64,000 nt of DNA from a virus. Every line of letters begins with the position of its first letter. Position 1 is the stretch's first letter. Shown in pieces: positions 27,905 through 54,326 of this stretch. The notes under the pieces were generated by a model. That model was given only the letters and a program-made list of their open reading frames with translations. It was not told where the DNA came from and ran no database searches. The stretch lies in IMG/VR virus record IMGVR_UViG_3300016725_000004. One strand, written 5' to 3'. The position numbers were made by a program, and so were the translations under genes.

Positions 27905-27933
27905 ATTATATGCTAAACCAAGTTAAATGTCAA
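27905..27933 (-). promoter_or_regulatory. consensus sigma70 promoter (TTGACA-N17-TATAAT) driving GC-rich insert
   Basis: minus-strand -35 at 27928-27933, -10 at 27905-27910. Confidence 0.55.
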
Positions 27934-28069
27934 GAACTTTTTTCCCGAATTTTTAACTTTTTTGGAACTCCCACGTTTTCAATTGTGGCGGGCGGGCACA
28001 CAAATTTGAAAGTTTCCTCGGTATTTGCTTGCGCAAAGTGGTAAACTTACAACCTGCGTTCCAAAAAAG

Positions 28070-28240
28070 TTAATCAATTACGTTCTGACACTTAAACTCA
28101 AAGCGCAATGCTGTTTTAAATGACTTCAATGTCTTCGACATGCCCATACGTTTTCTGGACTTTTTACATTTGCAATGTTTTTTGTCCATCTTGTCGTAGT
28201 TCACGTCACTAAGTTTGTGAATACCAACATAGGGTTTCAT
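28070..28240 (-). CDS. small basic protein (about 56 aa)
   Basis: MKPYVGIHKL...CKCKKSRKRMGMSK; AAGGAAAAAAC RBS; hairpin just upstream. Confidence 0.35.
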   Translation of the reverse strand: MKPYVGIHKLSDVNYDKMDKKHCKCKKSRKRMGMSKTLKSFKTALRFEFKCQNVID

Positions 28241-28439
28241 GTTTTTTCCTTGGTTGAGGTTTAACTCAACCAACTTCAAACTTGAGCATTTCGACCTCCT
28301 ATGTTTGAAGGTGTAGCACCCAATAAGTAATGAGTGCAGTAAATACAACATTGTGTGACAAACTATATATCACAACTGCCACAAGAGCAATTGATATTTT
28401 ATCTTTCATTTTATCCTCCAACTTAGAGGATTTGGTTAT

Positions 28440-28838
28440 TTACAAATCATCATCGTCATCATCGTCATCTTCAGTATAACCAAAAATGTCTTTTTCATAG
28501 TTGTGAATACCTTCTGAAGATTCTAAAATCTTCGGAGTAGGAAATTCAGGCATAGCATCACCAAGCGCAATGTCACAACAAATGACAGGGTTGACCTTCC
28601 AGCTATGCTGAATCAGCGCAGCTTTTACTTCACTGAGAGTAGCCGGAGTGAGGTCACAGGAATGAATATTGAATGTGCAGTTTTGTTCCGGACTATACAC
28701 TGTGGTTTCACCACTGCCATGCATTCTGATAACTTGAACGACACACTCTTTATCAAAAGCTTCTTCAACACTAGAAACGTAAGATACTTCGCCATTGGTA
28801 GAATCATCATACACTGTAACCAAGCTGCCAACTTTCAT
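28440..28838 (-). CDS. family E protein with poly-Asp C-terminal tail (132 aa)
   Basis: MKVGSLVTVYDD...EDDDDDDDDL; paralog of 36712-37212. Confidence 0.55.
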   Translation of the reverse strand: MKVGSLVTVYDDSTNGEVSYVSSVEEAFDKECVVQVIRMHGSGETTVYSPEQNCTFNIHSCDLTPATLSEVKAALIQHSWKVNPVICCDIALGDAMPEFPTPKILESSEGIHNYEKDIFGYTEDDDDDDDDL

Positions 28839-28864
28839 ATCTGACTCCTTGTATTTCTTATACG

Positions 28865-29200
28865 TTATATTTGATAACCAACTTTCGGAGGGCTATCATG
28901 TTTATATGCAATTCGCATCAAGTCTATAGTAGCCCAATTCAAAACTCTTTTCAACAAGTCAGCGTGTTCGGGAATGAATCCTTCATTTGCTGAGATAGTC
29001 TGAAAAATTTCAGCCACTTTCCAATGGTGGGCCAAACCATAATATAAGCAAACTTGCTTGTCTTCAATTGCAGGAAAATGCCGCGAACGAACAAGCATCA
29101 AGTATGAATGATCCGGACACACAGTAACAGAATAAGTGTGTCCTTGTGAAAGGTTAAGCTTATCAACAACTACACCCTGCTGATTGATTAGCACTTCCAT
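28865..29200 (-). CDS. family D small protein (111 aa)
   Basis: MEVLINQQGVVVDKLN... shares N-terminal pattern with 37226-37522 and 33821-34189 products. Confidence 0.5.
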   Translation of the reverse strand: MEVLINQQGVVVDKLNLSQGHTYSVTVCPDHSYLMLVRSRHFPAIEDKQVCLYYGLAHHWKVAEIFQTISANEGFIPEHADLLKRVLNWATIDLMRIAYKHDSPPKVGYQI

Positions 29201-29227
29201 TCAGAAATCCTTTTAATCACCAAAACT

Positions 29228-29256
29228 AGTATAACACTTTGGTGTGAGTTTGTCAA
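29228..29256 (-). promoter_or_regulatory. sigma70 promoter (TTGACA-N17-TGtTATACT extended -10)
   Basis: -35 at 29251-29256, -10 at 29228-29233. Confidence 0.5.
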
Positions 29257-29286
29257 GAACTAAATTGACTTGTTTTTGGCTTACTT

Positions 29287-29790
29287 TTAGTACCCCTGAA
29301 TAATCTTTTCGATTTTATGAAGCTTTCGTTTCAGTTCTTTAACTTCGGCTTCCTTAGCGGCAAGCTTGTGCCTGAGCTTGAGGAAGTCTTCACTGTCAAC
29401 TTCAAAGTACAACACTTCCGCAAGTTTCTTTTGCGTCAAAGTCCGAACGGGTTTAATATCAGTAATCATTGCAGTAAAACAACCAGATTGGTAAAAAGAT
29501 ACGTCAATCATCGGATCTGCCAAAGATCGGCAAGTAACTTTCCACCCATCAGGGTAAACATCATTCGGCCCGTGCCCTGTACCACCACCTTCTAAGTTTG
29601 CTTTATATACAACAAACTCACCAAGAAGGTGGCTGAAATTTTCTTCATCTATGGTTACTGCATGTTCAGTCAATTTACTACTGAATTTTCGGTTGGCATA
29701 AACTAGCCGCTCCTCAATCCAAGCATAAACTTCATATCCGGGTTTAAGTTCAATAATATCCCCAACTTTCAAATAATTTTTCTTAGACAT
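29287..29790 (-). CDS. hypothetical protein with C-terminal coiled coil (167 aa)
   Basis: start MSKKNYLKVGD with AAGGAGAAGG RBS. Confidence 0.5.
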   Translation of the reverse strand: MSKKNYLKVGDIIELKPGYEVYAWIEERLVYANRKFSSKLTEHAVTIDEENFSHLLGEFVVYKANLEGGGTGHGPNDVYPDGWKVTCRSLADPMIDVSFYQSGCFTAMITDIKPVRTLTQKKLAEVLYFEVDSEDFLKLRHKLAAKEAEVKELKRKLHKIEKIIQGY

Positions 29791-29800
29791 GACCTTCTCC

Positions 29801-29980
29801 TTAAAAGTTAGGTTCAACAATCGCTTTGCAAAAGGCGGTCACATCCTGCTGGTCTTCCTTGGAAAAGGAAGAGTCAGCCAACACTGTTGAAATAGCATCA
29901 TCAATGGATGATGTAGGATTGTTTGCCAAGTATTCAGTTACGTCCGTTGCCACAGCAAGAGCATCAATGTCGCGTATCAT
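29801..29980 (-). CDS. small acidic protein (59 aa, not in track)
   Basis: MIRDIDALAVATDVTEYLANNPTSSIDDAI...; AAGGAAA RBS. Confidence 0.4.
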   Translation of the reverse strand: MIRDIDALAVATDVTEYLANNPTSSIDDAISTVLADSSFSKEDQQDVTAFCKAIVEPNF

Positions 29981-29995
29981 AGTAGTTTCCTTATT

Positions 29996-30769
29996 TTACA
30001 TAGATTCAACAACTTTTTGCAGTTTTTCAACTGCATCAATAAAAGATTGTTTATCATTTTTTGACAATTTATTTCTTGTTTTGTGTATCTTACCTGAAAT
30101 TGACATTTTCAAATCTACAGTAAGAATATTTAATTTTTCTAAAAACTTAGCAATTGTAAGATTTTTACAGGCATTATCTTCACAGATTTTATCTGAATTT
30201 AATTCATTACACAGATCTGCATACATACGCTTTTGCATAATTTCATCTTTATCATTCCTAGCAATTTTCAACAAACGTTCCCGTGTCATTTCTGGTTTAT
30301 TTCTGGCATCATCAAGAATGTCTTGAGGAAGTTTATTAATCTTTAAAATTTCACTCACGGTACTCTTTGATTTGTGAAGTAATCTTGCAAGTGCATCATT
30401 AGAACATTGCTTTTGTTCTTTAAGAAACAAAAGTGATTCTGATAATTCAACTGCTGTTAAATCAGAACGCAAACAATTTTCAATTAAAGCCAAAGATAGT
30501 GCATAACCACCAATAAATGTAGCAGAAACAGTTACTCTCTTCAAGAGATTAAGGGCATGGACAAGACGTTCACCAGAAAGAAGAACGAGACGTTTATTAC
30601 AATAAGTAAAAACAATACTTTTATGTAAATCTTCATCTTTAATATTTTTAGCAAGTGCTATAACTTCATCCTCAGTGAAATATTCACTTGAATGTTTTTT
30701 GCTGGAAAGCAAATCTTTAATATTAAGTAAATATTCTTTACCATTCTCAAATTCAATTGTATTTTTCAT
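29996..30769 (-). CDS. ParB-like DNA-binding/nuclease-domain protein (257 aa)
   Basis: VLLSGERLVHAL and LIENCLRSDLTAVELSESL resemble ParB box (GERR..A / EN..R.DL...E). Confidence 0.45.
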   Translation of the reverse strand: MKNTIEFENGKEYLLNIKDLLSSKKHSSEYFTEDEVIALAKNIKDEDLHKSIVFTYCNKRLVLLSGERLVHALNLLKRVTVSATFIGGYALSLALIENCLRSDLTAVELSESLLFLKEQKQCSNDALARLLHKSKSTVSEILKINKLPQDILDDARNKPEMTRERLLKIARNDKDEIMQKRMYADLCNELNSDKICEDNACKNLTIAKFLEKLNILTVDLKMSISGKIHKTRNKLSKNDKQSFIDAVEKLQKVVESM

Positions 30770-30791
30770 GCGTCCTCCAATTATAAATGAT

Positions 30792-30814
30792 GGGAAGGTA
30801 ATAATTACCTTCCC
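30792..30814. terminator. stem-loop between 420-aa gene and ParB-like gene
   Basis: gggaaggtaat-a-attaccttccc palindrome; weak T-tract. Confidence 0.3.
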
Positions 30815-30829
30815 ATATATAGTGGTCAG

Positions 30830-32092
30830 TTAGTCGAGGCGACCACGAAGCTGACTGATAGCAGACAGGCAAGCATTCCGGTCAGCCTCATGCTGCATAT
30901 TGCAGCCAAACCCGAAAATCAAGTTCATGTCGTCAAACTTGGTTTGGGTAAGAAGGGCATACAGAGGCTTTTCTACCTCCGTAAGCTTTACGGGGGAGGT
31001 TGCACCTTCATGAGCAAGCAGAGCGGTTTCAACCGTATTCAGCACTTCCTTTATGTGCTCAGACTGCTGCTGATTTTTCATGTTGCCTTGGACGCCGAAA
31101 AACATGGCGGCAGCGTTGGGATCCTGCTGCAAAGTACGGCTGTGAAGCAGAGCCTTGAAGGTTGCTTCAAATTCAGGGTCAGGCATTTCCTGCGTCATGC
31201 AGTTGCCGCCGCATGCACAAGTATGCGGCTTGTCCACAGATATAGGTGAAGGAATGGCAGGAACATCTTCGGCAGCAGTTGCCATGCGAACATACTGCCC
31301 GAAGTTGACCAAGTGTTCGCAGTCAATAACTGCGACATCCTTGTAGGAACGGGCCAGCATGGCTTCTGTAAGCCGGGCGCGGGGCGTCTGCTTGACGATT
31401 ATGCCCACGCAGTATTGCGGCGCAGGAAGTTTGTCACCAAGCTGCTTCAACAAGCAGCAAACCGCGTTAATGTCCTGGCTGTTGAATGGGGCCAGCATGC
31501 GCGGCTCAATCAAAAGCGTGACTTCGCGCAAATTGACATTTTCGCCCTTCAAGGACTTGGCGGTGAAGTCGCCGGACTGAATGCGGGCGGTGAGTTCAGA
31601 AGTAATGGGAGATTCAACGATAAGAGTTTTGCATTCGATGGTTTTCATGGTTTTGCCTTTTGGTGGAGTTTTGGGTTTAAGTTCATCAGGAAGATGAACG
31701 CCTTCTGCTTCCAATTCTTCCTGAGCCTTGATAATGTTGGTCAAGATTTTTTCCAAGGTGGAAAAATCTTTCACTGCGTACCTGCGGGAAAACTTTTTGC
31801 GCATTTTGTTAGTAAGTTTTCCCACAGTGGCCCTTTCCAAAATAAAGCCCACTGAAAATTCAAGTTGATAGACCGGTGAAGAATCCTCAAGAAGAAAGGA
31901 ACCCGAAATGCCGGGTTCAGGAAAAAGCGGTGAAGAGCCAAAAATACTTTCACCGACCAGCAAGTTTACCGTGTGGGAATTTGGAAACAATTCAGTCAAT
32001 TTTTCAAGGGAAGTGTTTGCTTGAACTTGTTTCAAGTTGACCGGATTGCTATCCAAGGGATTGAGTACAAAGACGCGGCATGCAATTTTCAT
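30830..32092 (-). CDS. hypothetical protein (420 aa), GC about 50%
   Basis: long ORF with GC-rich codon usage unlike AT-rich regions. Confidence 0.55.
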   Translation of the reverse strand: MKIACRVFVLNPLDSNPVNLKQVQANTSLEKLTELFPNSHTVNLLVGESIFGSSPLFPEPGISGSFLLEDSSPVYQLEFSVGFILERATVGKLTNKMRKKFSRRYAVKDFSTLEKILTNIIKAQEELEAEGVHLPDELKPKTPPKGKTMKTIECKTLIVESPITSELTARIQSGDFTAKSLKGENVNLREVTLLIEPRMLAPFNSQDINAVCCLLKQLGDKLPAPQYCVGIIVKQTPRARLTEAMLARSYKDVAVIDCEHLVNFGQYVRMATAAEDVPAIPSPISVDKPHTCACGGNCMTQEMPDPEFEATFKALLHSRTLQQDPNAAAMFFGVQGNMKNQQQSEHIKEVLNTVETALLAHEGATSPVKLTEVEKPLYALLTQTKFDDMNLIFGFGCNMQHEADRNACLSAISQLRGRLD

Positions 32093-32102
32093 CAGTTTCT
32101 CC

Positions 32103-32423
32103 TTAAATATTTTTCCAATCTTGGTAATATTTTTTCATTTTAACATACGAATTTCGTATGATAGATATATTGAATTTCCAAAAGATAATAGTAAGAATAA
32201 GAGAAAGAGCAGCAGAGATTCTGAGAATGTAAATATACATAATTGGAATGGTAAGTATTTTCATATGTGAATTTAAATTGCTATACAAATGAGCCATGAT
32301 AGCAGGTGCAAGCCAAGGGACGAAAGACAAAATGAAAAAGACAGTATAACACACAAGCAGTCCAAGTTCGCAGTAAAAATACTCAAAACGAATTTTCTTC
32401 ATCTCATGGTCATATGCGTTCAT
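32103..32423 (-). CDS. small membrane protein (start at internal Met)
   Basis: MNAYDHEMKK... with GGGGGAATT RBS, downstream of promoter; upstream part of track ORF overlaps promoter. Confidence 0.4.
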   Translation of the reverse strand: MNAYDHEMKKIRFEYFYCELGLLVCYTVFFILSFVPWLAPAIMAHLYSNLNSHMKILTIPIMYIYILRISAALSLILTIIFWKFNISIIRNSYVKMKKYYQDWKNI

Positions 32424-32449
32424 AATTCCCCCTTTCAAAGCATGGTATA

Positions 32450-32478
32450 TTATACCATGCTTTGAAAAGAAAGTCAAT
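32450..32478 (-). promoter_or_regulatory. consensus sigma70 promoter within 35-bp palindrome
   Basis: TTGACT-N17-TgGTATAAT; palindrome tttcaaagcatggtatattataccatgctttgaaa (32434-32468). Confidence 0.55.
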
Positions 32479-32490
32479 GGGTCAAAACAA

Positions 32491-33024
32491 CTAAATTTTG
32501 TCAAATTTGACTTCAACGAGAATGGCTCGAAGAAAATCATCACTGCCATCAGTTATTTGTGTAAGTCTAACCTTCCTACCATTAAGTTCAACAATGGGAT
32601 GATTACCTGCCCCACCACTCCACGGATGCTTACCACATATCTTTACAAAGTATTTGTTCAAAAGTGAAACACAACGAGCAAACTGCAAATGCTTTTTTGC
32701 AAACTTTTCAAACTTGTGATAGCGAGAAACCTTCTCCGCATTTGTTTCGTAATGCAAATCCTGAAACTGAAAACAAATGGTAGCTTCACCCCTGCTGGGA
32801 GCAAATTCACAAAGTGTAGTTTTGACTTTGACATTTTCCGAAGATGTCACATCCTTCAAAAGATGAAACATTGCGCCAGAGATAATCTCCGAAATGGAGT
32901 TGGAATAAGTAACAAGGTCTTCAAGCTGTTTCACACGCTGTTCTGCCCGAAGCCGAATGTTAGCAGAGCGGCGTTCGATACCTAATTCCTTAACCACAAC
33001 TTTTTTCAATGTATTAGCTTTCAT
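32491..33024 (-). CDS. hypothetical protein (177 aa)
   Basis: AAAGGGGTAATTT RBS; follows promoter. Confidence 0.5.
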   Translation of the reverse strand: MKANTLKKVVVKELGIERRSANIRLRAEQRVKQLEDLVTYSNSISEIISGAMFHLLKDVTSSENVKVKTTLCEFAPSRGEATICFQFQDLHYETNAEKVSRYHKFEKFAKKHLQFARCVSLLNKYFVKICGKHPWSGGAGNHPIVELNGRKVRLTQITDGSDDFLRAILVEVKFDKI

Positions 33025-33052
33025 AAATTACCCCTTTTTCAAAGTATGGTAT

Positions 33053-33081
33053 ATTATACCATACTTTGAAAAGAATGTCAA
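33053..33081 (-). promoter_or_regulatory. consensus sigma70 promoter within 35-bp palindrome
   Basis: TTGACA-N17-TgGTATAAT; palindrome tttcaaagtatggtatattataccatactttgaaa (33037-33071). Confidence 0.55.
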
Positions 33082-33093
33082 GAGGCTGAAAAA

Positions 33094-33306
33094 CTACGAA
33101 ATAAGCGGTTCAGCGGCGATTTCAAAAAGGTAGGTTCCTTCTTTGTCAAGTTGAAACGTACCATTTTGCTTGTTCACCCAAAGTTTGGGAAAACGGGTGC
33201 GTAGCTCTTTTTCAGCCGCAGCTTTACTTGCGGCCACAAAGAGAAATTCAGCTACGCCAAATGGTTTGAACTTGGTCACAACAAAAACTTCTTTGTTAGT
33301 GTTCAT
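33094..33306 (-). CDS. hypothetical protein (70 aa)
   Basis: minus-strand ORF. Confidence 0.4.
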   Translation of the reverse strand: MNTNKEVFVVTKFKPFGVAEFLFVAASKAAAEKELRTRFPKLWVNKQNGTFQLDKEGTYLFEIAAEPLIS

Positions 33307-33808
33307 GCTTATCCTCCAAAATGTTTAAGGTGAAATTAGGTTGTTTATCTCTCGCAGGTGTACGAGAGATAGAAACAGTTATAGCCACATCATGTAAAAC
33401 CGTATCATCTTTTGTCATATCCAAAAGATAAGTATTCAATTCATTGAATATTGTTTTAGAGAATGTTCCAAACATATTCACATCACCAGATTCAGTAATA
33501 ATCGAACCTAAGGGTGGCATGATAATCTCATGCCGCTTTTTGTTACATTGCTTCATTATCCAACGCAATGGCCCAATTAGCCATTTTTTATTAATTTCAG
33601 TATCTGAAGGATTTATTGTAAAAGAACACAAATCAAAAATTGCAGAAGGGGAAAGATTTCCTATCTTTCCAGCAAAAGGTATGCCTTCAACATATCCATT
33701 GAAAAGCTCTTCAATCATAAGGTAATTGTCATTAAGCGTGAAACGACAAAAACCTCCATATGTCATGACATGAGAAATAACACCCTGAGGGTTGATTGCA
33801 AATTTCAT
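33296..33808 (-). CDS. hypothetical protein (170 aa), distant family D-like N-terminus
   Basis: MKFAINPQGVISHV... Confidence 0.5.
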   Translation of the reverse strand: MKFAINPQGVISHVMTYGGFCRFTLNDNYLMIEELFNGYVEGIPFAGKIGNLSPSAIFDLCSFTINPSDTEINKKWLIGPLRWIMKQCNKKRHEIIMPPLGSIITESGDVNMFGTFSKTIFNELNTYLLDMTKDDTVLHDVAITVSISRTPARDKQPNFTLNILEDKHEH

Positions 33809-33820
33809 TTTAATCTCCTT

Positions 33821-34189
33821 TTAATCGCGTTTAGAAAAATCTTTCCCAAATTCAGGTGTACGAATTACAACATTATTCAATTGCTGTTCTATAATCCACA
33901 AAACACAATTCAGCAAAGCTTCATTAATTATAGTACGAATCTTTTTGCTGGTTGTATTTTGAGGAATAAGAACAGATTGCTCTTTCAATTTAGAATATGC
34001 ATCTAATAGACCTCCTACTTCATATGAGTTAACTCCTATATCCATAGTGAATATATCATGGCATTCACCACGAATAAATGAGGATATTTCAATAATATTT
34101 TCATGTACTGTTACTTTAAATTTCGGTGCATGATATCCTATCTTATGAGGATTAACTACCACACCTTTAGCAGTAAGGAGAAAGTGCAT
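33821..34189 (-). CDS. family D small protein (122 aa)
   Basis: MHFLLTAKGVVVNPHKIG... Confidence 0.5.
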   Translation of the reverse strand: MHFLLTAKGVVVNPHKIGYHAPKFKVTVHENIIEISSFIRGECHDIFTMDIGVNSYEVGGLLDAYSKLKEQSVLIPQNTTSKKIRTIINEALLNCVLWIIEQQLNNVVIRTPEFGKDFSKRD

Positions 34190-34200
34190 TTTAATTCTCC

Positions 34201-34614
34201 TTATACGAGTTTCACATTAAGGAATTTTTGTATTTCTTCTGGAGTTTGTTCAAAAATATCGTTAATACCTTTTTTCAATGAAACATAAGTTGATTGACGT
34301 AGTTGCTCAAATGCAGGAGCATACTGCAAAGTAAGTAATTTAAGTTCATCATCTGAAACTAATTTATACTTATGACATTCAATTGAATACAAAATATAAT
34401 CTGCAATCCCAAAGTTACCTGAAACAAGAACTCCCCAGATATCATCAAATCTGTACATATGAATGGTAGCATCATTAGAAATGCGCTTCATTTTTATGTA
34501 GGGTGTATCTTTTTCAAGTTCAATTTCACAAAGCCAAGGTAAGGCTGTCATTTCACAAGCGCGTAAAATATCACTAAAAGATGAAATTCCTAATTGCAGA
34601 TTTGGTAAAAACAT
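34201..34614 (-). CDS. hypothetical protein (137 aa)
   Basis: minus-strand ORF. Confidence 0.5.
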   Translation of the reverse strand: MFLPNLQLGISSFSDILRACEMTALPWLCEIELEKDTPYIKMKRISNDATIHMYRFDDIWGVLVSGNFGIADYILYSIECHKYKLVSDDELKLLTLQYAPAFEQLRQSTYVSLKKGINDIFEQTPEEIQKFLNVKLV

Positions 34615-34626
34615 ATACCCTCCTTT

Positions 34627-35070
34627 CTATTTGTAAATGTTAAGCATTAACGATAACAAAAAAGAATCAGGACGCACATTATGTGCATGAATGTAATGTG
34701 TATATCCATCAGGAATAACAAAAGTGTACCCTTTATATTCAGCTTTTATTTCACTACTTCCGTTAAGTTTGCCACAAATACGGCAAATAGAAGAACCCTT
34801 ATAAAAGGATCTGCTACCGGAACAGAGAAGCTTTGAAAATTTCTTTGTAAAAAGCTTCATCTGTTCTTCGGTAAGATTATTGGAATCTTCAACGGGTTTA
34901 TTGAATTTAAACCAATAACCTATTGCAACATTACCACGTTCCGTAATATGTGCAGTCTTCAAAGTATTGCGAATGGATATTCTAAGTTTTTTATGTTCAG
35001 GAAGATTAACTTCTTTCAAAGCTACATATGCATTTTCAAGAAGTTGGTAAGCATCAATATCTATAAACAT
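34627..35070 (-). CDS. hypothetical protein (147 aa)
   Basis: minus-strand ORF. Confidence 0.5.
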   Translation of the reverse strand: MFIDIDAYQLLENAYVALKEVNLPEHKKLRISIRNTLKTAHITERGNVAIGYWFKFNKPVEDSNNLTEEQMKLFTKKFSKLLCSGSRSFYKGSSICRICGKLNGSSEIKAEYKGYTFVIPDGYTHYIHAHNVRPDSFLLSLMLNIYK

Positions 35071-35441
35071 TATGCACCTCCTTTAGCAGCAGCACACATT
35101 TTAGTATAAGTATATATTCTATCACGCTCACCATATTCGAGCATTTGAATCGAATACGGAGCACGTTCTTTCAACTTGGGAGTGAAACGAGATCGTTTCA
35201 AAACACGGCAAATAATACCGGGATAAAATCCCATTACCGGATGGAGCACTAAACACACATTCCCTGCCTTTGGGGGAATCACAGGAAGACCAGCCGCACC
35301 CATAACAACCACGTTGGTAAAGCGGAAGAAGCAATCTTCTGTATGCATCAAAATTGCTTCGGGAGTATCAAGCGCATGGTTAAGGTATGTTTCAGGAATT
35401 TCTTCGACAATTGCCACCGCAGTGCATTCATATATTTCCAT
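35070..35441 (-). CDS. hypothetical protein (123 aa)
   Basis: minus-strand ORF. Confidence 0.5.
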   Translation of the reverse strand: MEIYECTAVAIVEEIPETYLNHALDTPEAILMHTEDCFFRFTNVVVMGAAGLPVIPPKAGNVCLVLHPVMGFYPGIICRVLKRSRFTPKLKERAPYSIQMLEYGERDRIYTYTKMCAAAKGGA

Positions 35442-35488
35442 AACTACTCCTTTCCTACCCAGTAGGTAGGAATTACATTCTGTTCTCC

Positions 35489-35728
35489 TTATTTTGAATA
35501 AATTTTACGGTTATTTGGTGTATTGATAACATACATAGATTCATGTGCCCGCAAAATAACACCACGCCGAGCCAAGCGGTTGAGAATCTTTACAACAAGA
35601 GGGCGGTCTTTTTCTTCATATTCTTCAAGATGAACATGCCAAAAATCGCCCAAGTTTTGGGAAAGAGATTTCCGAAGGCCGGTAAAAATCTCTTTGGAAG
35701 TAAGGCTGCGCTTTTGTTCAGTAGACAT
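35489..35728 (-). CDS. small basic protein, possible winged-helix (79 aa)
   Basis: start MSTEQKRSL with AAAAGGGGAGAA RBS; VVKILNRLARRGVILRAHE. Confidence 0.4.
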   Translation of the reverse strand: MSTEQKRSLTSKEIFTGLRKSLSQNLGDFWHVHLEEYEEKDRPLVVKILNRLARRGVILRAHESMYVINTPNNRKIYSK

Positions 35729-35742
35729 AATGTTCTCCCCTT

Positions 35743-36132
35743 TTATTTGTTTACAAAATACAAAACGAGGAAGACGATTTGAAACGCTGCCAGTCCAAAA
35801 TAAAAGTATGCATCCCACATATAGTCAGCAGAACGTCTGCGAGAATTTTCTATAACTTCATCTAATGCTTTTATATGTTTCTCTTGGATGCTAGTCAACT
35901 TGTCACAGTTTTCAATCACTCGCGGGAGTTTTCTCTGCTTTACCAAATTATCCAAATATTGAAGTCTTTCCAAAACTTTTTCCCGTTCTTCTTTCTCGAA
36001 GAAATGAAATTGAATATCAAGAATGGCCCGTTGGCGGTCGGTAGCAGAGGTATTCAACCATGCAATAAAACCAAGTTGATCTTCCTCTGACATGTTAAAC
36101 ATATCCATCCATTTTGTATTTTCGTACATCAT
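35743..36132 (-). CDS. hypothetical protein with C-terminal TM helix (129 aa)
   Basis: minus-strand ORF. Confidence 0.45.
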   Translation of the reverse strand: MMYENTKWMDMFNMSEEDQLGFIAWLNTSATDRQRAILDIQFHFFEKEEREKVLERLQYLDNLVKQRKLPRVIENCDKLTSIQEKHIKALDEVIENSRRRSADYMWDAYFYFGLAAFQIVFLVLYFVNK

Positions 36133-36316
36133 ACACCTCGAAGTTAGAAAGAGTGCAAAGCTTCTCGCAATGCCCGTTTAATCGGTTGGCCCAATTCATC
36201 CACCAGCAACAGTAAATGTTTTGAATTTTCAACTTTTGGGTTAAAAGAAAAAGTTATAAAATTTTGTGAAATTTCAATATAATCAACTTCCATTTCTTTC
36301 TCTGTATTTTCCACAG

Positions 36317-36586
36317 TTAGTCTCCTTTGATATTTTCAGAAATAAGTAAAAAGTTCAACATACATATAACCTGATGTTGATACTCCCTAGGAAGATTGTA
36401 AAATTGTTCATCTAATATTTGAATTTGGCTAGATGAAAGTTTTCGTAACCACTTCAAAAATTTATTATGATGAAGTATATTCATTTCAATATAATCCATC
36501 CAGTTAAAATTACCAATATGGGTGGATTTATCATAAAAGTTTCCAGTGAAAAGCAAATAGTTAACTTTATCAATTGCACTTTTCAT
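36317..36586 (-). CDS. hypothetical protein (89 aa)
   Basis: minus-strand ORF. Confidence 0.4.
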   Translation of the reverse strand: MKSAIDKVNYLLFTGNFYDKSTHIGNFNWMDYIEMNILHHNKFLKWLRKLSSSQIQILDEQFYNLPREYQHQVICMLNFLLISENIKGD

Positions 36587-36711
36587 ATTTACTCCTAAAT
36601 TAATAATTTACTTTCATTAAGAATTTTTATTTCTCCCCTACCAGTATCACGGTTAAATTCTTCTGACAAAGCTGTCAGTTGTTTGATTTGTGCCTCTGTC
36701 ATATATCCTCC

Positions 36712-37212
36712 TTATTTGCAAAGGTAACAAATACCAATAAAGATAAGTGCAACTACAGTGAATGAACCAAGCAAAACTCCAAGAAACTTGGCGATACTTA
36801 CATTAGGAGTATTATCCTCATCTTCATCATCCTCGTCATCATCGTCATCTTCACTGATAGGACGAATTTGAAGGTTAATTTGTTTGCGTTCCTCCGAAGA
36901 AAGTAAAACGGCTTGAGGTATAACCGGAAGTTCATCGGTTCCTTTAAGTTCAAATGAAATAACGGGTTCAATATACCACTTGTATTTCTCCAAACTCTCT
37001 TGAACTTCATCAAGTGAACAAAGTTCAAGTTCGCCAGCATACACGTTAAAAGCGGTATTAAGATGAGGGCAAAAGACAGTTATCTCATTTCCACGAATGG
37101 CGATAACTTGCAAAATATAATCTCCCTCGAACGCAGTAATGACGTGAGGCACATACATTTCATAGCCTTCGTCATCAATATCAGATATAGTAACCAAGCT
37201 ACCAAGTTTCAT
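36712..37212 (-). CDS. family E protein with poly-Asp tract and C-terminal TM anchor (166 aa)
   Basis: MKLGSLVTISDIDD...EDDDDDEDDEDEDN...FTVVALIFIGICYLCK. Confidence 0.55.
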   Translation of the reverse strand: MKLGSLVTISDIDDEGYEMYVPHVITAFEGDYILQVIAIRGNEITVFCPHLNTAFNVYAGELELCSLDEVQESLEKYKWYIEPVISFELKGTDELPVIPQAVLLSSEERKQINLQIRPISEDDDDDEDDEDEDNTPNVSIAKFLGVLLGSFTVVALIFIGICYLCK

Positions 37213-37225
37213 AACAACTCCCTAC

Positions 37226-37522
37226 TTAATATTTGTCCATGAATTTTATTATGGTGGTAAACAACTTAATTTCTTTTGGAGTCATACCCTCCAAAGCATC
37301 CTTATTATTTACCTCCTCAAGAATTTTCTCTAATGAGGTTGTGCGAAAATTTCCTGTCCAAAGAACAGCAGGTTCTTCAATATCAGGACGAAGAACCCTC
37401 GGATGAAAATAATTACGAGTAATCGTAAGTATCTCTCCCTCAACTTCAACTTCAAACGTAATGCCAACATATTTATTGACCTGGTCTACCACAGCACCAG
37501 CATGATTTACGAAAAATTTCAT
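37226..37522 (-). CDS. family D small protein (98 aa)
   Basis: MKFFVNHAGAVVDQVNKYVG... Confidence 0.5.
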   Translation of the reverse strand: MKFFVNHAGAVVDQVNKYVGITFEVEVEGEILTITRNYFHPRVLRPDIEEPAVLWTGNFRTTSLEKILEEVNNKDALEGMTPKEIKLFTTIIKFMDKY

Positions 37523-37573
37523 CTACCCTTCTCCTTTTCAATGGCGATAGCTGCCAGTTTTCGGCTATGGTAT

Positions 37574-37602
37574 ATTATACCATAAATAGCCGTTGGTGTC
37601 AA
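37574..37602 (-). promoter_or_regulatory. consensus sigma70 promoter (TTGACA-N17-TgGTATAAT)
   Basis: -35 at 37597-37602, -10 at 37574-37579; core palindrome ctatggtatattataccatag. Confidence 0.55.
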
Positions 37603-38064
37603 CTAGGCCAAATTAATGGCGTGGTACGGCAGTTTGTGCGGCTTGCTTGCTTTTAGCAATTCCACATATCCCAAGTTGAACAAGTCGCCGTTGCGCAACT
37701 TGCTAAAATAAAATTCAGCGTAATCTTTTGTCGTAAAACTGGTTCGATTATCATTTTCAGGGTTAATCAAATCCGTATACAACACGCGCCAACTAATTTG
37801 GCCGGGCGAAGAACTATCACAATATATATTAAAAATTCTTATTAGGAATGTTATCTCTCCACACTCAAAGGTTGGAGGTACTTCAAATAATACTGCATAA
37901 ACTTCTCGGTCAGTAAACTCATAATATTCACAGTCAGTGACACCCAACTTTATAAAGTTCACACAAGTTTTATTTCGTATCGGATCTGTTTGTTGTGTAG
38001 ATTTAATAAAATCTGCAAAGTTTGCAAATTTTGAAAAATCATGGTGAGCGAATTTTATTTGCAT
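37603..38064 (-). CDS. hypothetical protein (153 aa)
   Basis: minus-strand ORF. Confidence 0.5.
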   Translation of the reverse strand: MQIKFAHHDFSKFANFADFIKSTQQTDPIRNKTCVNFIKLGVTDCEYYEFTDREVYAVLFEVPPTFECGEITFLIRIFNIYCDSSSPGQISWRVLYTDLINPENDNRTSFTTKDYAEFYFSKLRNGDLFNLGYVELLKASKPHKLPYHAINLA

Positions 38065-38073
38065 AATGACTCC

Positions 38074-38336
38074 TCAATATAATTGACGAAACGTAGTTGA
38101 AGCTTCAACTCTGTCAAATAAAGTTGTGCCTTTATCATTAAAGACAAAATCAATTTTTAGAGTTTGCACATTAACTTTCAATATTTGATATGTACCTGTC
38201 ATGTATTCATGAAGGATTACTGCATAACTATTCTCCGCAAGATTTTTTATTCCAACACAGGATTCAGTAAGCAATCCACTACTTTTAGCTACAATATTCT
38301 CTTTAAACTTTTCCTGAATTTCCTCAAATTTCATTG
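38074..38336 (-). CDS. small protein (87 aa) overlapping stop of HTH gene
   Basis: MKFEEIQEKFKEN...; the 207-aa track ORF upstream of this Met is out-of-frame overlap with HTH gene. Confidence 0.35.
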
Positions 38337-38824
38337 AGGAAATCCTTTGCGGAACAACCAAAAATACCACCAAGCAGCTTTGCTTTGTTTCTTGGAATGT
38401 TACGCTGACCAAGTTCATATTGGCTGATATGTGATTGCGGCACACCGAGATCCTGTGCGAGTTCTTTTTGCGTGAGATTTGCATTCCTACGCAATTCTCG
38501 CAAAATGTCACACGGATACTTTGCGCTTTTAGGTTTAACAATTTTCCAAGTTTTGGGATTAGGAAAAGAATACATGCTAATATCCAATTGTCCCAAACAA
38601 ATAGTTTCAGAGGTACAATCTTTTCTTTCCACCTCCAAAACCAGCGCAAAACCAATTTCACCTTTAGGATTACAGATAGTAATAATACTATCTGCATCTA
38701 CTACAAAAAATGATCTTACAGTAATTTGGTCTGAAATTTTAACCATATCAAGGTCAGTACCTTGATAAATGGCAAAGTTACGAATGTTGGGTTTTTTCAA
38801 AGGAAGGCAAGTCAGAGTATACAT
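38324..38824 (-). CDS. XRE-family HTH protein with unknown N-terminal domain (166 aa)
   Basis: C-terminal LRELRRNANLTQKELAQDLGVPQSHISQYELGQRNIP (Cro/C1-type helix-turn-helix). Confidence 0.55.
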   Translation of the reverse strand: MYTLTCLPLKKPNIRNFAIYQGTDLDMVKISDQITVRSFFVVDADSIITICNPKGEIGFALVLEVERKDCTSETICLGQLDISMYSFPNPKTWKIVKPKSAKYPCDILRELRRNANLTQKELAQDLGVPQSHISQYELGQRNIPRNKAKLLGGIFGCSAKDFLNEI

Positions 38825-38833
38825 TTCGTTCTC

Positions 38834-39646
38834 CTAAGCAAGACGAATATAATCAGTAAGTTGATCCACATAGCCAGTAAGCTGAATAAAGGATTCAGCA
38901 CTGCCGCCCAAATCAGGATGGTGAATCTTTGACAAAGCACGGTATTGCGATTTGATTTGCTCCAAAGTAAGTTCTTCAATTGAGTCAAGCAAACCAAGAA
39001 ATTCAGCAGCTTCAATAACCTTACGCGGAAATCCACGCAATTTGGACTGCGCATTCATTTCCTCAACTTGCTCTTTTGTGTAATCCGAAAGAACAACATC
39101 CTGTTCAATGTTGAAACAAACTTTAATACCTTCTTTCAGAAAAGCATAAAAACTGCGGTAGTGCCAATCACTAGCACGATAATATCCTGCACCACCACAA
39201 TAATAGGAACCACTTTTATTTTCATAGTTTGAAAAATGTTGTGGCTTCACAACACTGCCGGGTCGATATTTATTCTTTAAGTCTTCTGTAGCTTTTGAAG
39301 CTGCCATAGCCTTTGTTGCAGTTGCCATTGAAATGGCTTCGGCTTCAAAGGCAGAAGCCCTATAATAATCATCATCCTTCCTCCAGTAAATGCGGTAGGA
39401 AGGCATGAGAATGCGGGCATAGAAATACTTTGCCAAGTTCTGGTGAGCTTGGTCATCAAGCTCAATTCGCCGGGCAATATTCTTAATCTTTTCAAAGATT
39501 TCTTTTGCGCCGTTACGAAAACGGATGGTGGTCATCTTACCTTCGTGAAGTTTCAAGTAATCACGAAAGTCTTCTGCCAAGTCTTCAACAATGTTGAGCA
39601 AGTTGAAATTTCCGAGATACTTCTTTTCATAAGCCTTGGGTTTCAT
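38834..39646 (-). CDS. J-domain (DnaJ-like) protein (270 aa)
   Basis: C-terminal QIKSQYRALSKIHHPDLGGSAESF (HPD tripeptide, J-domain helix II/III). Confidence 0.6.
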   Translation of the reverse strand: MKPKAYEKKYLGNFNLLNIVEDLAEDFRDYLKLHEGKMTTIRFRNGAKEIFEKIKNIARRIELDDQAHQNLAKYFYARILMPSYRIYWRKDDDYYRASAFEAEAISMATATKAMAASKATEDLKNKYRPGSVVKPQHFSNYENKSGSYYCGGAGYYRASDWHYRSFYAFLKEGIKVCFNIEQDVVLSDYTKEQVEEMNAQSKLRGFPRKVIEAAEFLGLLDSIEELTLEQIKSQYRALSKIHHPDLGGSAESFIQLTGYVDQLTDYIRLA

Positions 39647-39671
39647 TTATAACTCCTTTTTGGTATGGTAT

Positions 39672-39700
39672 ATTATATCATAATATATGGTAATTGTCAA
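39672..39700 (-). promoter_or_regulatory. consensus sigma70 promoter (TTGACA-N17-TATAAT)
   Basis: -35 at 39695-39700, -10 at 39672-39677; tggtatattatatca core. Confidence 0.55.
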
Positions 39701-39762
39701 GTATCTGACACATACGAAAAATGGCTGAAAACCAGCCATTTACGCCAATTTTCAGCCATTAA

Positions 39763-39969
39763 TTAAATGGGATTTGAGATACTATTCAATCGTTGAAGTA
39801 TGTCTGCTTGGCAGTTATCATGCAAATGAATAATAACACGACCATACCTATGAGAACCATCAGCTTCATCTGTACGTTCCATAAAGGTAAAGGTGTTAGT
39901 ATTATCTGGAATGATAACTTGTTTGCATTTATCGCAAATATAAACCGTATCTAATTTCACTATTTCCAT
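39763..39969 (-). CDS. small Cys-containing protein (68 aa)
   Basis: CDKCKQ...HDNCQ; minus-strand ORF. Confidence 0.4.
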   Translation of the reverse strand: MEIVKLDTVYICDKCKQVIIPDNTNTFTFMERTDEADGSHRYGRVIIHLHDNCQADILQRLNSISNPI

Positions 39970-40235: not shown

Positions 40236-40259
40236 ATGTTCTCCTTTTTTCTTATTATA

Positions 40260-43219: not shown

Positions 43220-43228
43220 TATTTCTCC

Positions 43229-43684: not shown

Positions 43685-43692
43685 AGTTTCTC

Positions 43693-44756: not shown

Positions 44757-44758
44757 TT

Positions 44759-45130: not shown

Positions 45131-45133
45131 ATG

Positions 45134-48026: not shown

Positions 48027-48038
48027 AATTCTCTCCTT

Positions 48039-49242: not shown

Positions 49243-49498
49243 TCCAAAGTCCTCCGAGCAAACTTGTAGCAATTGCATTATAATTATCTAGTAATTGACA
49301 TTTACCACAACAGGTTGTTGCTACATCTCCATCAGCAATATTTGGAAATACTTTAGTCATCTTTACTACAATAATTTTTTCAGTCATAAAAATTTTATGT
49401 GTAGATAGATAATCTGGAGAATCTGGATTGGGTTTCCAAAAATAAAATTCAACATTTTGTATCATAATTGGTGGTCCAGTGAACCAAATATCAGACAT
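49217..49498 (-). CDS. small Cys-containing protein (about 93 aa)
   Basis: start MSDIWF with AGGA RBS; TTCCGKCQ. Confidence 0.35.
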   Translation of the reverse strand: MSDIWFTGPPIMIQNVEFYFWKPNPDSPDYLSTHKIFMTEKIIVVKMTKVFPNIADGDVATTCCGKCQLLDNYNAIATSLLGGLWNGPIRIPT

Positions 49499-49781
49499 GA
49501 TGACATTGTATCCTATCAATATCTTCTTTCTTTTTAAGAGGAAGATTGTCAATCTCATATTGTGCTTGAATGTATATCCAAGATTCAAAAGAAGTTCCAA
49601 AATATTTGGCTAGTCTTAATGCAGTATCGACAGTTATACCTCTACGATTTTCACAAATTTCCTGTATTCTACTATACGGTAATCTCAAGTCATAGGCAAG
49701 CTGTGATTTTGAAATATTCAAAGGATTTAAGAATTTCTCAACTAACCATGTGCCGGGATGCTGAACCATAATAAACTCCAT
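49491..49781 (-). CDS. HigA-like XRE-family HTH protein (about 96 aa)
   Basis: HPGTWLVEKFLNPLNISKSQLAYDLRLPYSRIQEICENRRGITVDTALRLAKYFGTSFESW matches HigA antitoxin HTH pattern. Confidence 0.5.
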   Translation of the reverse strand: MEFIMVQHPGTWLVEKFLNPLNISKSQLAYDLRLPYSRIQEICENRRGITVDTALRLAKYFGTSFESWIYIQAQYEIDNLPLKKKEDIDRIQCHHV

Positions 49782-50730: not shown

Positions 50731-50741
50731 GATACTGCTCC

Positions 50742-52291: not shown

Positions 52292-52309
52292 TTGCTCCTC
52301 CTTTTTTAA

Positions 52310-52337
52310 ATTATACCATACTATTATATATTGTCAA
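52310..52337 (-). promoter_or_regulatory. sigma70 promoter (TTGACA-N16-TgGTATAAT)
   Basis: -35 at 52332-52337, -10 at 52310-52315. Confidence 0.5.
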
Positions 52338-52497
52338 CTTCATCAACTTCAGTATATTTACTATGTCTGCAAAGATTATCATGAAGAGAAGCAGTTTTAA
52401 TTCTTACATTATTATCTTCTTTATAAAAGACAACTGGAGGAGTACAATATTCTAATAAATTTATGCTATGTATATATGCCCAATCCTAAATTCAAAT

Positions 52498-52953
52498 TTA
52501 ATCATCACCACTACTGCTGAAATCAGAAGAAGAAGAAGCAGAATCTGTATCAAAAGATTTATATGAGTCATCCGTATCTGAAATATTATTACTTGAAGAA
52601 GTAAATAATTCATTTATAGCTATTGTAGATGCCACATCTGCTAAATCATCAATTACAGTATCTAAATCATTATTTTGTGAAGCTTGAACCCCGCGAGTTG
52701 GGCGGTATCCTCCATATCTAAAAGTTGACCTTTGAGGTTGTGGAATCTCACGCCGTAAAACCGGTCTAGGATGTGGCTGTGAAGATTGTATAGATATAGA
52801 TGGTGAAGGCGGTGTAGAAATAAAGTTTTTTCCCCCACAGCTTAGTTTAACATCTTCTATTTCTTCTATTTCTTCATTTACTTCATTAGGTTTATTTTTC
52901 TTAAACAAATTTTTAAAAAAAATGATGATTGCGTTAATCATTTTTCCCTCCAT
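52498..52953 (-). CDS. membrane-anchored protein with Ser/Asp-rich acidic tail (151 aa)
   Basis: N-terminal hydrophobic helix; C-terminal DTDDSYKSFDTDSASSSSDFSSSGDD. Confidence 0.45.
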   Translation of the reverse strand: MEGKMINAIIIFFKNLFKKNKPNEVNEEIEEIEDVKLSCGGKNFISTPPSPSISIQSSQPHPRPVLRREIPQPQRSTFRYGGYRPTRGVQASQNNDLDTVIDDLADVASTIAINELFTSSSNNISDTDDSYKSFDTDSASSSSDFSSSGDD

Positions 52954-53267
52954 TACTCACAAAATAAAATTAACATTTTATTTTCATCATATAAATATGT
53001 ACTACCCTTAAATTTACAATTATTTTTATTTGCAAATTCTTCAAAAGATTCACAAGTATCAGTACAAAATCCTATTACGTTACCATCTTGTACAAATGGA
53101 GTTGCATTATTTATAGAGAAAGCAGATTGTTTAATAGGTTTAGATTTTGTAGAAGAAGGAAATGAAGTTCTCCTTTGTTCAATCCAGGTACTTACAAATA
53201 AACAAAGGATACCAATAATGAATACATAAAAATACCATTTATTAGAAGAAGACATTATTATCTCCAA
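52953..53267 (-). CDS. membrane-anchored small protein (104 aa)
   Basis: N-terminal TM helix. Confidence 0.45.
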   Translation of the reverse strand: MEIIMSSSNKWYFYVFIIGILCLFVSTWIEQRRTSFPSSTKSKPIKQSAFSINNATPFVQDGNVIGFCTDTCESFEEFANKNNCKFKGSTYLYDENKMLILFCE

Positions 53268-53361
53268 GTTATAGGGTTACTACGCACGAAAAGGCGAGAG
53301 GACAAACCCTCTCGCCTTTATATATTTGCGATAAGGGAATTAAACCCCTTATATTGTTTTC

Positions 53362-53437
53362 TGGTGGGCCTGTCCAGATTCGAACTGGAAGTCCAAGACT
53401 TAGAAGGTCTTTGCATTATCCGTTATGCTACAGGCCC
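53362..53437 (-). tRNA. tRNA-Arg (anticodon UCU)
   Basis: 76-nt cloverleaf GGGCCTG-TA-GCAT-AACGGATA-ATGC-A-AAGAC-CTTCTAA-GTCTT-GGACT-TCCAG-TTCGAAT-CTGGA-CAGGCCC-A-CCA; all four stems perfectly paired, U33, TTCGAAT T-loop, encoded CCA. Confidence 0.85.
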
Positions 53438-53444
53438 AGAAATA

Positions 53445-53699
53445 TTATTTTCCATCGAAAGGAAAATCAATAAGCTGCAAGTATCCTTTCATTTGAGCAA
53501 TAGCAGCTTTTCTCCCTTTGTTAAAACCAAGGGAGTAACTTGTTTGGTGAATAGTTTTCAACTGCTCTTGTAAAGAGCAAATTTTAGTATTACTCTCTTC
53601 TAAGTTTAATAGACACTGAAACTTTTCTTCTGTAGTATCATTTAATTTATCTAGCCAAATTTGGCAAGCATCATGTACTACTAAAGGTTTTTCATCCAT
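53445..53699 (-). CDS. hypothetical protein (84 aa)
   Basis: minus-strand ORF. Confidence 0.4.
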   Translation of the reverse strand: MDEKPLVVHDACQIWLDKLNDTTEEKFQCLLNLEESNTKICSLQEQLKTIHQTSYSLGFNKGRKAAIAQMKGYLQLIDFPFDGK

Positions 53700-54238
53700 T
53701 ATTTATTCTCTCGAATAATTTTAAAAATAAAATCAACAAATTTTTTGTTGAAAAAGTCCTTTCCATATTTTTCAATCATCATCTTCTTAGTAGATTTTGC
53801 CAACTTGTAGTTTGATGGGCCTTCATACAATTTACCAACAAAAGAAGGATAAACTAAAGTGTCAAAGTCCATCGGCGTCTTGACTTCAATTTCAGCGGAA
53901 ATCAGGTTGGTATCATCATAAGAATCAACTTCCCAAATATCAGAACCAATACAAACTTGATAGCGAGTTTTATAATTAAAAACTCCATCGCACATTGAAA
54001 ACAAACTATAAGCTTCCATTCGAGAAACGGGAATATTTACTTCTTCCCGTGAATGCTTGGAAAGTTGTTGCTTCAAAGTAAGGCAATAGGAAATCTTTCC
54101 AGAAATATTTTCAATTCGGATACGACCAACTTTGCCGTCATCATGAAATATAAACCCTTGAAGCATTTTAGAGGTTGACGTAACATGTTCTTTCCAAGAG
54201 TCGCCAACCACTTCAAATTTACGTTCAATTTCGCGCAT
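53699..54238 (-). CDS. CYTH-domain (triphosphate tunnel metalloenzyme) protein (179 aa)
   Basis: N-terminal MREIERKFEVV (EIExKF CYTH signature); follows promoter. Confidence 0.55.
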   Translation of the reverse strand: MREIERKFEVVGDSWKEHVTSTSKMLQGFIFHDDGKVGRIRIENISGKISYCLTLKQQLSKHSREEVNIPVSRMEAYSLFSMCDGVFNYKTRYQVCIGSDIWEVDSYDDTNLISAEIEVKTPMDFDTLVYPSFVGKLYEGPSNYKLAKSTKKMMIEKYGKDFFNKKFVDFIFKIIRENK

Positions 54239-54297
54239 GATTTTATCCTTTTTTCAATTACTAGTATTACTGGCAAAATTACCAATTCACTAGCTAA

Positions 54298-54326
54298 ATT
54301 ATACCATATTTTTATGGTTATGTCAA
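54298..54326 (-). promoter_or_regulatory. consensus sigma70 promoter (TTGACA-N17-TgGTATAAT)
   Basis: -35 at 54321-54326, -10 at 54298-54303. Confidence 0.55.

Follow-up and report, generated by a model that had tools for sequence, protein, structure and literature searches.

Operators that overlap core promoters are well known from phages and plasmids: those of lambda cI/Cro are 17 bp long, P22 Mnt and Arc act at Pant, and in both cases the dyads overlap core promoters, while the RK2 KorA/KorB operators, found at many promoters, and the P1 C1 operators form global operator regulons. Previous studies also described the promoter-early stem-loop cassettes (PeSLs) of T4-type phages, strong sigma-70-type promoters with stem-loops that lie in hyperplastic regions and mediate modular shuffling (PMC2839356, PMC4122927). 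Here we analysed 64,000 nucleotides of viral DNA (IMG/VR record IMGVR_UViG_3300016725_000004; "the window" below means this whole stretch), in which we found a family of consensus promoters, four of them with a -10 region built as a mirror image. In the best-supported description, a PeSL-like family of host-type promoters appears to delimit and mobilise cassettes of orphan genes, and the mirror-image -10 core marks a local subset of them; the palindromic -10 core is what is new compared with PeSLs.

A mechanical search for TTGACA-N16/17-TATAAT, with matches scored out of 12 positions, gave seven promoters at 12/12 (starts 54326, 52337, 40282, 39700, 37602, 33081 and 27933, by which we name them; Table 1) and two at 11/12 (32477 and 29256), none of them on the plus strand. 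Perfect sites averaged 0.27 over 100 block-wise dinucleotide shuffles, with never more than 3, against the 7 observed. All nine strong promoters are intergenic and on the coding strand, 15-135 nt before a purine-rich ribosome-binding site (RBS) and ATG, and 7/9 carry the TGn of an extended -10 element. By consensus, strand and position these sites are real host-type sigma-70/sigma-A extended -10 promoters, and we infer that transcription starts 6-8 nt past TATAAT, within the right arm of the palindrome where one is present. The initial annotation had listed eight consensus sites on the minus strand, and all of them exist (six at 12/12, two at 11/12), with coordinates right within one base (32450-32478 is actually 32449-32477); its weaker sites at 246-218 and 20599-20571 exist as well, and it overlooked the perfect promoter at 40282-40254.

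The shared unit of the four palindromic promoters (39700, 37602, 33081 and 32477) is the 19-mer TATGGTATAATATACCATA, which is an extended -10 element, TRTGnTATAAT, plus its mirror image, the two overlapping by three bases; TRTG is the Gram-positive-type extended -10 consensus. The left half is TATGGTATAAT and the right (mirror) arm is ATACCATA; base 5 of the -10 hexamer, at about position -8, forms the centre of the unit, which extends roughly from -17 to +2. Within these cores, TGGTATAATATACCA is perfect at 32443-32457, 33047-33061 and 37568-37582 and has one mismatch at 39666-39680; a search for it returned 8 strand-matches (4 sites) where 0.47 were expected, an enrichment of the palindrome over chance. 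That annotation had placed the palindrome at six promoters and had described the set as dispersed. We found only four, since 54326 and 52337 have the left half alone, and these cluster within 7.3 kb (32.4-39.7 kb); neither the rest of the window nor the 10 kb beyond the window start holds a further palindromic promoter, and strong promoters of any kind were likewise not found in those 10 kb. No exact occurrence of the 19-mer core sequence was found in the searchable literature.

In a control set of 124 distinct phage promoters matching TTGAC-N14-ATGGTATAAT, the core was in no case (0/124) followed by ATACCAT. From the positional frequencies of these controls, the right arm ATACCAT would arise by chance in about 6e-5 of promoters, and at least four of nine promoters would have it with a probability of about 1e-15; therefore, the right arm is not a general property of such promoters. 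The earlier claim that the dyad exceeds what RNA polymerase needs is upheld in this subset, where the arm is kept although the spacers are randomised.

Relatives of the phage were reached through three proteins and comprised L048 (96% protein identity), L047 (85%), and L189 and L197 (57-76%); IMG/VR protein-seeded scans with the 177-aa, 292-aa and 420-aa proteins, and with an alignment of the HTH protein described below, did not find relatives. Several public assemblies contain the identical sequence (100%; loci L041-L046), which is the same phage and therefore uninformative on conservation. In L048 the core was identical at both orthologous promoters. In L047 the 19-mer was perfect at both orthologous sites, A and B, with only 5/12 spacer and 10/17 leader positions identical at site B, and in L189 and L197 the core was perfect at the orthologue of 39700 (G, where the window has A), with a different spacer. 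Orthologue spacers agree at 5-7/12 positions, and those of the window paralogues 39700, 37602 and 33081 at only 2-3/12. On these alignments the mirror half of the 19-mer is under constraint: paralogues and orthologues retain it despite the divergence of their spacers and leaders. Moreover, a different large phage (L057/L024, a 161-kb contig), whose proteins showed no homology to those of the window in the 18.6 kb compared, has five promoters of the palindromic type in that 18.6 kb, with 6-9 of 9 mirrored pairs; their right arms drift, but T-x-T-G and most of TATA are retained.

Comparison of these genomes shows, at the level of nucleotide alignment, that the promoters are junctions of cassette gain, loss and exchange between relatives, a role that the initial annotation did not see. 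At site A of L047 the promoter is a hybrid, its upstream part similar to window 37636-37566 and its downstream part to 33081-32417, with the crossover within the shared 19-mer and the 4.5-kb ten-gene block missing. L048 is without the three-gene cassette 29222-27971 (between promoters 29256 and 27933), and its 177-aa gene is mostly deleted, up to just before promoter 29256. The slot of the ParB-like protein gene has three alleles (ParB-like in the window, 139 aa in L047, 65 aa + 57 aa in L048). The hairpin directly upstream of promoter 39700 (AATGGCTGAAAA...TTTTCAGCCATT) is nearly identical in L189 and L197 and is 92% identical over 49 nt to L057 4278-4326, which precedes a promoter of the same type among genes unrelated to the window's. 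A separate upstream hairpin exists at 39700 (39720-39760) and 20599 (20609-20647); at 33081, 32477 and 37602 there is only the dyad centred on the -10 element.

These features resemble the PeSLs (Arbiol et al. 2010, PMC2839356; Comeau et al. 2014, PMC4122927) in the near-perfect TTGACA-N17-TATAAT with stem-loops, in the repetition of the elements between small orphan genes of hyperplastic regions, in the indel and replacement junctions that close relatives show at the elements, including between the -10 and ATG, and in modules shared next to unrelated genes. In contrast, the stem-loop of a PeSL is a separate G/C-rich hairpin upstream, whereas here four dyads are centred on the -10 element itself.

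Table 1. Positions of the promoters, regulator genes and exchange-related features in the window (P-type, with the mirrored core; N-type, other strong promoters; scores out of 12).
Feature	Position	Strand	Description
P-type promoter, TTGACA-17-TATAAT	39672..39700	-	Core 39664-39682 (TATGATATAATATACCATA), 8/9 mirrored pairs
P-type promoter, 12/12	37574..37602	-	Perfect 19-mer core 37566-37584
P-type promoter, 12/12	33053..33081	-	19-mer core 33045-33063; inside 37-bp perfect palindrome
P-type promoter, TTGACT	32449..32477	-	Core CATGGTATAATATACCATG at 32441-32459
N-type promoter, 12/12	54298..54326	-	Left half TATGGTATAAT only; ACCAT-N6-ATGGT dyad in spacer
N-type promoter, 12/12, 16-nt spacer	52310..52337	-	Left half only
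N-type promoter, 12/12	40254..40282	-	Without palindrome; upstream edge of GC-richer island
N-type promoter, TATACT, 11/12	29228..29256	-	-10 enclosed by unrelated dyad CACCAAA-N13-TTTGGTG (29218-29244)
N-type promoter, 12/12	27905..27933	-	Unrelated dyad GTTTaGCAT-ATA-ATGCAAAC over -10 element
Weaker promoter, TTGACT-17-TATATT	20571..20599	-	Strong hairpin upstream, 20609-20647
Weaker promoter, TTGACA-17-TATTAT	218..246	-	Inverted repeat overlaps -35 element and spacer
166-aa protein, C-terminal XRE-type helix-turn-helix (HTH), residues 108-160	38324..38824	-	Candidate dyad-binding regulator; operon of promoter 39700
XRE-type HTH protein	49491..49781	-	Resembles plasmid HigA-like antitoxins, PHROG 1381, 9e-18
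GC-richer variable island	26200..40300	-	31-60% G+C vs backbone ~27%; gene content varies between close relatives
Variable block, ~4.5 kb, ten genes	33082..37565	-	Between promoters 37602 and 33081; absent in L047
ParB-like gene slot	29996..30769	-	Replaceable; bounded by hairpin 30790-30816
Terminator-like hairpin with T-run	39720..39760	-	Directly upstream of promoter 39700; composite terminator-promoter module

At two of the four palindromic promoters the symmetry extends beyond the 19-mer, to a 37-bp perfect palindrome at 33036-33072 and a 39-bp dyad with one mismatch at 32431-32469 (35 perfect bp at 32433-32467). The 35-bp dyad of the initial annotation is therefore real and slightly longer than stated, but it is not a conserved element: L047 keeps only the 19-mer at both sites, the outer arms being absent at site B and only the right flank being present at site A, and promoter 37602 has outer arms, CGGCT/AGCCG (37562-37592, with a bulge), whose sequence is unlike that at the other sites. 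We did not count the missing left arm of L047 site A as non-conservation, because the alignment shows a recombinant of two promoters. From the -35 element through the RBS, promoters 33081 and 32477 match throughout, bar a symmetric T:A to C:G double change by which the two long dyads differ, and this likeness indicates recent conversion between both sites. The 35-37-bp extension would be a recent, lineage-specific elaboration, probably produced by gene conversion between 33081 and 32477 together with template switching.

Dyads over or beside the -10 were found at 7/11 promoters of the window, the non-palindromic ones included, compared with 12/124 controls (Fisher p = 8.5e-5), and the control phage promoters themselves have about twice as many such dyads as shuffled downstream sequence; the dyad over promoter 29256 was not retained in L047. 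Transcripts reading through the long dyads are predicted to fold strongly (-29.0 kcal/mol, z = -6.1, at 33081; -27.7 kcal/mol, z = -5.7, at 32477), and in the minimum-free-energy fold at both sites the GGGG of the RBS is paired. The dyads were rejected as intrinsic terminators, having an AT-rich centre and no U-tract and being followed by AAAAAGGGG, AAAGGGGG or AAAACTGG, and as known RNA families, Rfam matching only the tRNA. Promoters of the N4 virion polymerase are recognised as a hairpin, and those of the plasmid Frpo type form their -35 and -10 elements within a stem; neither type applies here, as the -35 lies outside every dyad and the hexamers are the ordinary duplex consensus.

For the mirror half of the 19-mer, the reading we favour and rank first, as a possibility and not yet a probability, is an operator for a dimeric regulator. 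The dyad has the size, symmetry and -10 position of an operator, is repeated at four promoters and is conserved beyond the needs of the polymerase. Moreover, the 7.3-kb block with the four palindromic promoters begins with the operon of promoter 39700, which comprises genes for a 270-aa protein, the XRE HTH protein and proteins of 86 aa and 153 aa; L189 and L197 share with the window the placement of the HTH gene in the first palindromic operon, the gene pair and the promoter being conserved. A symmetric dimeric protein would bind across the -10 and occlude the promoter, the mirror half would be kept because of such binding, and the result would be autoregulation together with coordinated shut-off of an 8-kb block. 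The candidate regulator would be the XRE HTH protein encoded at 38324-38824 in this first operon. The initial annotation had proposed three HTH proteins as candidates, of which those at 38324-38824 and 49491-49781 are XRE-type and that at 35489-35728 has no detectable HTH. As for its promoter/operator model, the consensus extended -10 promoters heading cassettes and the HTH gene in a palindromic operon hold, and the 35-bp dyad and the dispersion do not.

Compared with the operators of lambda cI/Cro and P22 Mnt/Arc (Pant), the 19-mer is alike in its length (17-19 bp), two-fold symmetry and central base pair, in overlapping the -10, in occurring as several copies within a few kb and in having an XRE-type HTH gene in the first controlled operon. 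Unlike those operators, the half-site here is the polymerase's own extended -10 consensus, the palindromes are perfect where those of lambda and P22 are graded pseudo-palindromes, and there is no sign of a lysogeny module. The RK2 KorA/KorB and P1 C1 regulons likewise repeat one short operator at several strong promoters of the element, and RK2 KorA sites overlap the -10 as the 19-mer does; however, the sites here are clustered within 7.3 kb and not dispersed, and the regulator is only a candidate.

Several points count against this picture. Dyads of unrelated sequence at the -10 cannot be explained by one sequence-specific repressor. No homologue of the HTH protein was found in L057/L024, with its five such promoters, either in the 18.6 kb or by a pattern scan of IMG/VR, where that contig is included, both searches being of low sensitivity. 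In the phage group the core varies mostly at R and n, the degenerate positions of TRTGn, in either arm and uncompensated, and this pattern fits recognition of the two strands by RNA polymerase as well as it fits a repressor. Finally, the likeness to T4-type PeSLs is a resemblance and not membership. Taken as a whole, PeSL-like cassette promoters with a palindromic subset whose mirror half may act as an operator would be the best explanation, one that we hold tentatively and rate at slightly below an even chance.

The mirror half might also have no function of its own, a view we regard as unlikely but well worth weighing. The palindromic promoters would then be paralogues held similar by cassettes recombining with one another, with the 19-mer as the homology patch that survives crossovers; templated (quasipalindrome) mutation at replication would perfect and extend the repeat, and as spacer and leader would be free to vary, a copy of one mirrored onto the other would do no harm. 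In line with this, the L047 crossover falls inside the core, promoters 33081 and 32477 are identical from -35 to RBS except for the symmetric double change, the outer arms differ between 37602 and 33081 and are missing at site B of the 85% relative, and 19/55 distinct occurrences of the 19-mer in 596 Gb of bacterial genomes extend by 4-15 more perfect pairs with lineage-specific arms, where fewer than 0.5 were expected. Template switching is a documented source of perfect hairpins and also keeps them perfect (PMC8794818, PMC7202029), and such an origin fits well both the outer arms and the longer bacterial palindromes around the 19-mer: as in quasipalindrome template switching, symmetric double changes keep the arms perfect, the outer arms are lineage-specific, and the flank of one lineage was apparently overwritten by the complement of the other flank. 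It is, however, a mutational mechanism and not a function, and it leaves unexplained why the same 8-nt right arm is found in only a subset of promoters across lineages. Promoters 39700, 37602 and 33081 share only the 19-mer and the -35 element, and their right arms would be expected to drift like their spacers unless held by selection or by very frequent conversion limited to the 19 bp; in L057/L024 it does drift, yet the parts retained there look like the product of constraint. We consider it quite improbable, on the other hand, that the core is a mirror-image polymerase site, with TATGGTATAAT on the coding strand and TATGGTATATT on the other strand overlapping by 3 bp, to which host RNA polymerase would bind either way; it would then start divergently, in antisense, or compete as an unproductive complex and so tune the forward promoter or insulate it. 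The palindrome stops precisely at the end of TRTGn (19 = 2 x 11 - 3), the plus strand at all four sites reads TGGTATATT, that is TGn plus a 5/6 hexamer with A2 and T6, the TG is present in 11/11 mirrored arms while variation sits mostly at R and n, and across unrelated phage promoters the n base and its mirror are uncorrelated (n=G, C 36/T 31; n=A, C 6/T 19; similar ratios by family), which speaks for each arm being recognised independently and against pairing of these two bases. Promoters made bidirectional by a symmetric -10 are on record in PMC12825309, which cites Warman et al. 2021; there, a pseudo-symmetric shared or overlapping -10 may engage polymerase both ways, as might the present core, and the common spacings between divergent starts are 18, 10 and 23 bp. 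The present sites differ in that the symmetry is perfect and reaches TRTG/TGn on both strands, and in that the reverse -35 (only 0-4/6 matches) and a divergent gene are missing and the predicted start spacing of about 15-16 bp is outside the common classes. In addition, the 121 nearby genes are all co-oriented, with no plus-strand gene upstream, so that transcription in reverse would yield nothing but antisense RNA to the 3' end of the gene upstream, and in L057_6846 the mirrored hexamer is destroyed (TTCATT) while ATGGT...ACCAT is kept.

A structural role, whether in DNA or in RNA, seems to us improbable to the same degree, both versions taken together. In DNA, a cruciform at the -10 would make the promoter sensitive to supercoiling; in RNA, a hairpin formed only by read-through would draw in or abut the RBS, so that translation would come mainly from transcripts of the gene's own promoter, or would serve as a processing or stability site. 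The excess of dyads of different sequence over the -10 region (7/11 promoters), the twofold excess in the control promoters, the strong read-through folds at 33081 and 32477 with the RBS in the stem, and the occurrence of long dyads where a separate upstream terminator is missing (33081, 32477 and 37602; 39700 and 20599 have hairpins and short dyads) all speak for such a role. But the conserved unit is only 19 bp, and its AT-rich stem of 8 bp is not long enough to extrude readily as a cruciform and falls short of the RBS at 37602 and 39700; the hairpins have no U-tract and hence are not intrinsic terminators; the mismatches are uncompensated (A.C at 39700, G.T at three L057/L024 sites); covariation between n and its mirror is absent across phages; and the long arms are absent at the comparable site B of the 85% relative. 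Very unlikely, in our estimate, is that the 19-mer combines a promoter with a recombination site preferred for its perfect two-fold symmetry, a cruciform or Holliday-junction-like target or the target of a dedicated recombinase, by which self-expressing cassettes would move within and between large phages in an integron- or att-like system built into promoters; under that reading, RNA polymerase or a dimeric regulator might also use this symmetry to gate expression.

The core recurs in unrelated phages and metagenomes. We did not take this as evidence of a universal function, because, on a rough estimate from the control frequencies, ATAYCA is expected at about 1 in 800 such promoters and the recurrence is at about the level of chance. 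In unrelated loci, what lies downstream of the 17-mer palindrome (ATGGTATAATATACCAT or ATGATATAATATACCAT) is a varied set of genes that are not regulators. In four loci of Clostridium or Clostridia (L209, L213, L220 and L234) the 19-mer lies at promoters inside perfect palindromes of about 37-49 bp, and the genes that follow read as smpB from their N-terminal sequence. The 19-mer was also seen at promoters of prolyl-tRNA synthetase, aspartyl-tRNA synthetase, rpsM and a Mycoplasma tRNA gene. One Poribacteria metagenome-assembled genome (L200, L201, L203, L210, L221, L245, L251 and L255) has promoter-like 19-mer sequence at many contig ends, and this recurrence suggests a repeated mobile element. 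A widespread phage group in IMG/VR (L259-L366) has one conserved promoter, TTGACA...gcccttgtggTATAATATACCAAAATGTCAGAAC, which contains the 15-bp palindrome and in which the mirrored n position varies between C and T within the group. In the window itself, TTGATT-17-TATAAT with a shorter palindrome, TGGTATAATACCA, occurs at 12311-12339 (minus strand) inside the called open reading frame (ORF) 12023-12706, and the -35 hexamer is mirrored just upstream (GTCAA-N8/10-TTGAC) at promoters 29256 (29256-29275) and 40282 (40278-40297).

The GC-richer island contains 7/9 strong promoters, including all four palindromic ones, and is rich in orphan genes, most of which lack Pfam and PHROG matches. Its G+C peak at 27.0-27.5 kb is the gene of a low-complexity protein rich in lysine, aspartate and glutamate (~26987-27772, minus strand), whose promoter, 27933, is separated from the ATG at 27772 by an unusually long leader (about 135 nt; predicted fold -32.8 kcal/mol, z = -2.3); the leader 27772-27905 had no Rfam match. 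The 270-aa island protein has distant homologues (45-56% identity) in a phage lineage of about 45% G+C, which suggests that the island genes may have been imported; consensus promoters were not found in that lineage. Upstream of the 264-aa homologue in a distant lineage (L194-L196) there is a different perfect 22-bp palindrome, CAGGTGCGATTAATCGCACCTG, and a CI-like repressor gene neighbours this homologue.

The window as a whole is phage-like, with about 27% G+C and 121/124 called ORFs on the minus strand. Recognised products include an anaerobic class III ribonucleotide reductase with ATP-cone domain (NrdD, 22383-24791), which points to an anaerobic host, the ParB-like protein, a PurZ-like protein, HD hydrolases and similar proteins; none of the recognised products is a structural or replication hallmark. 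There is one tRNA-Arg (TCT), at 53362-53437. A protein identical to one encoded in the window sits on a 233,379 bp contig, so the phage is large (at least 233 kb), and megablast with 42 kb of the window gave zero matches among GenBank phages. The PurZ-like adenylosuccinate synthetase homologue (9260-10324, minus strand) matches PHROG 1211 (5e-64); its best solved relative is 6fm1, an adenylosuccinate synthetase entry (2e-51), which we take to be PurZ of Vibrio phage phiVC8, and it also matches 7odx, a chain deposited as PurZ (3e-45). Neither DatZ nor MazZ was identified adjoining this gene. Given the PurZ homologue, the phage may use 2-aminoadenine for adenine, and if so, both the melting of the -10 and the reading of AT-rich promoter sites by proteins would be affected.

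How the many consecutive orphan genes of large uncultivated phages are expressed and turned over is poorly understood. In the window a readable rule emerges: consensus promoters, some with a mirror-image -10, bound self-contained cassettes that are exchanged at those boundaries. If the palindrome is an operator, this phage would have a small early regulon for which a candidate regulator can be named; should it serve recombination or work through polymerase symmetry, the PeSL idea would extend beyond T4-type phages, with a new architecture.

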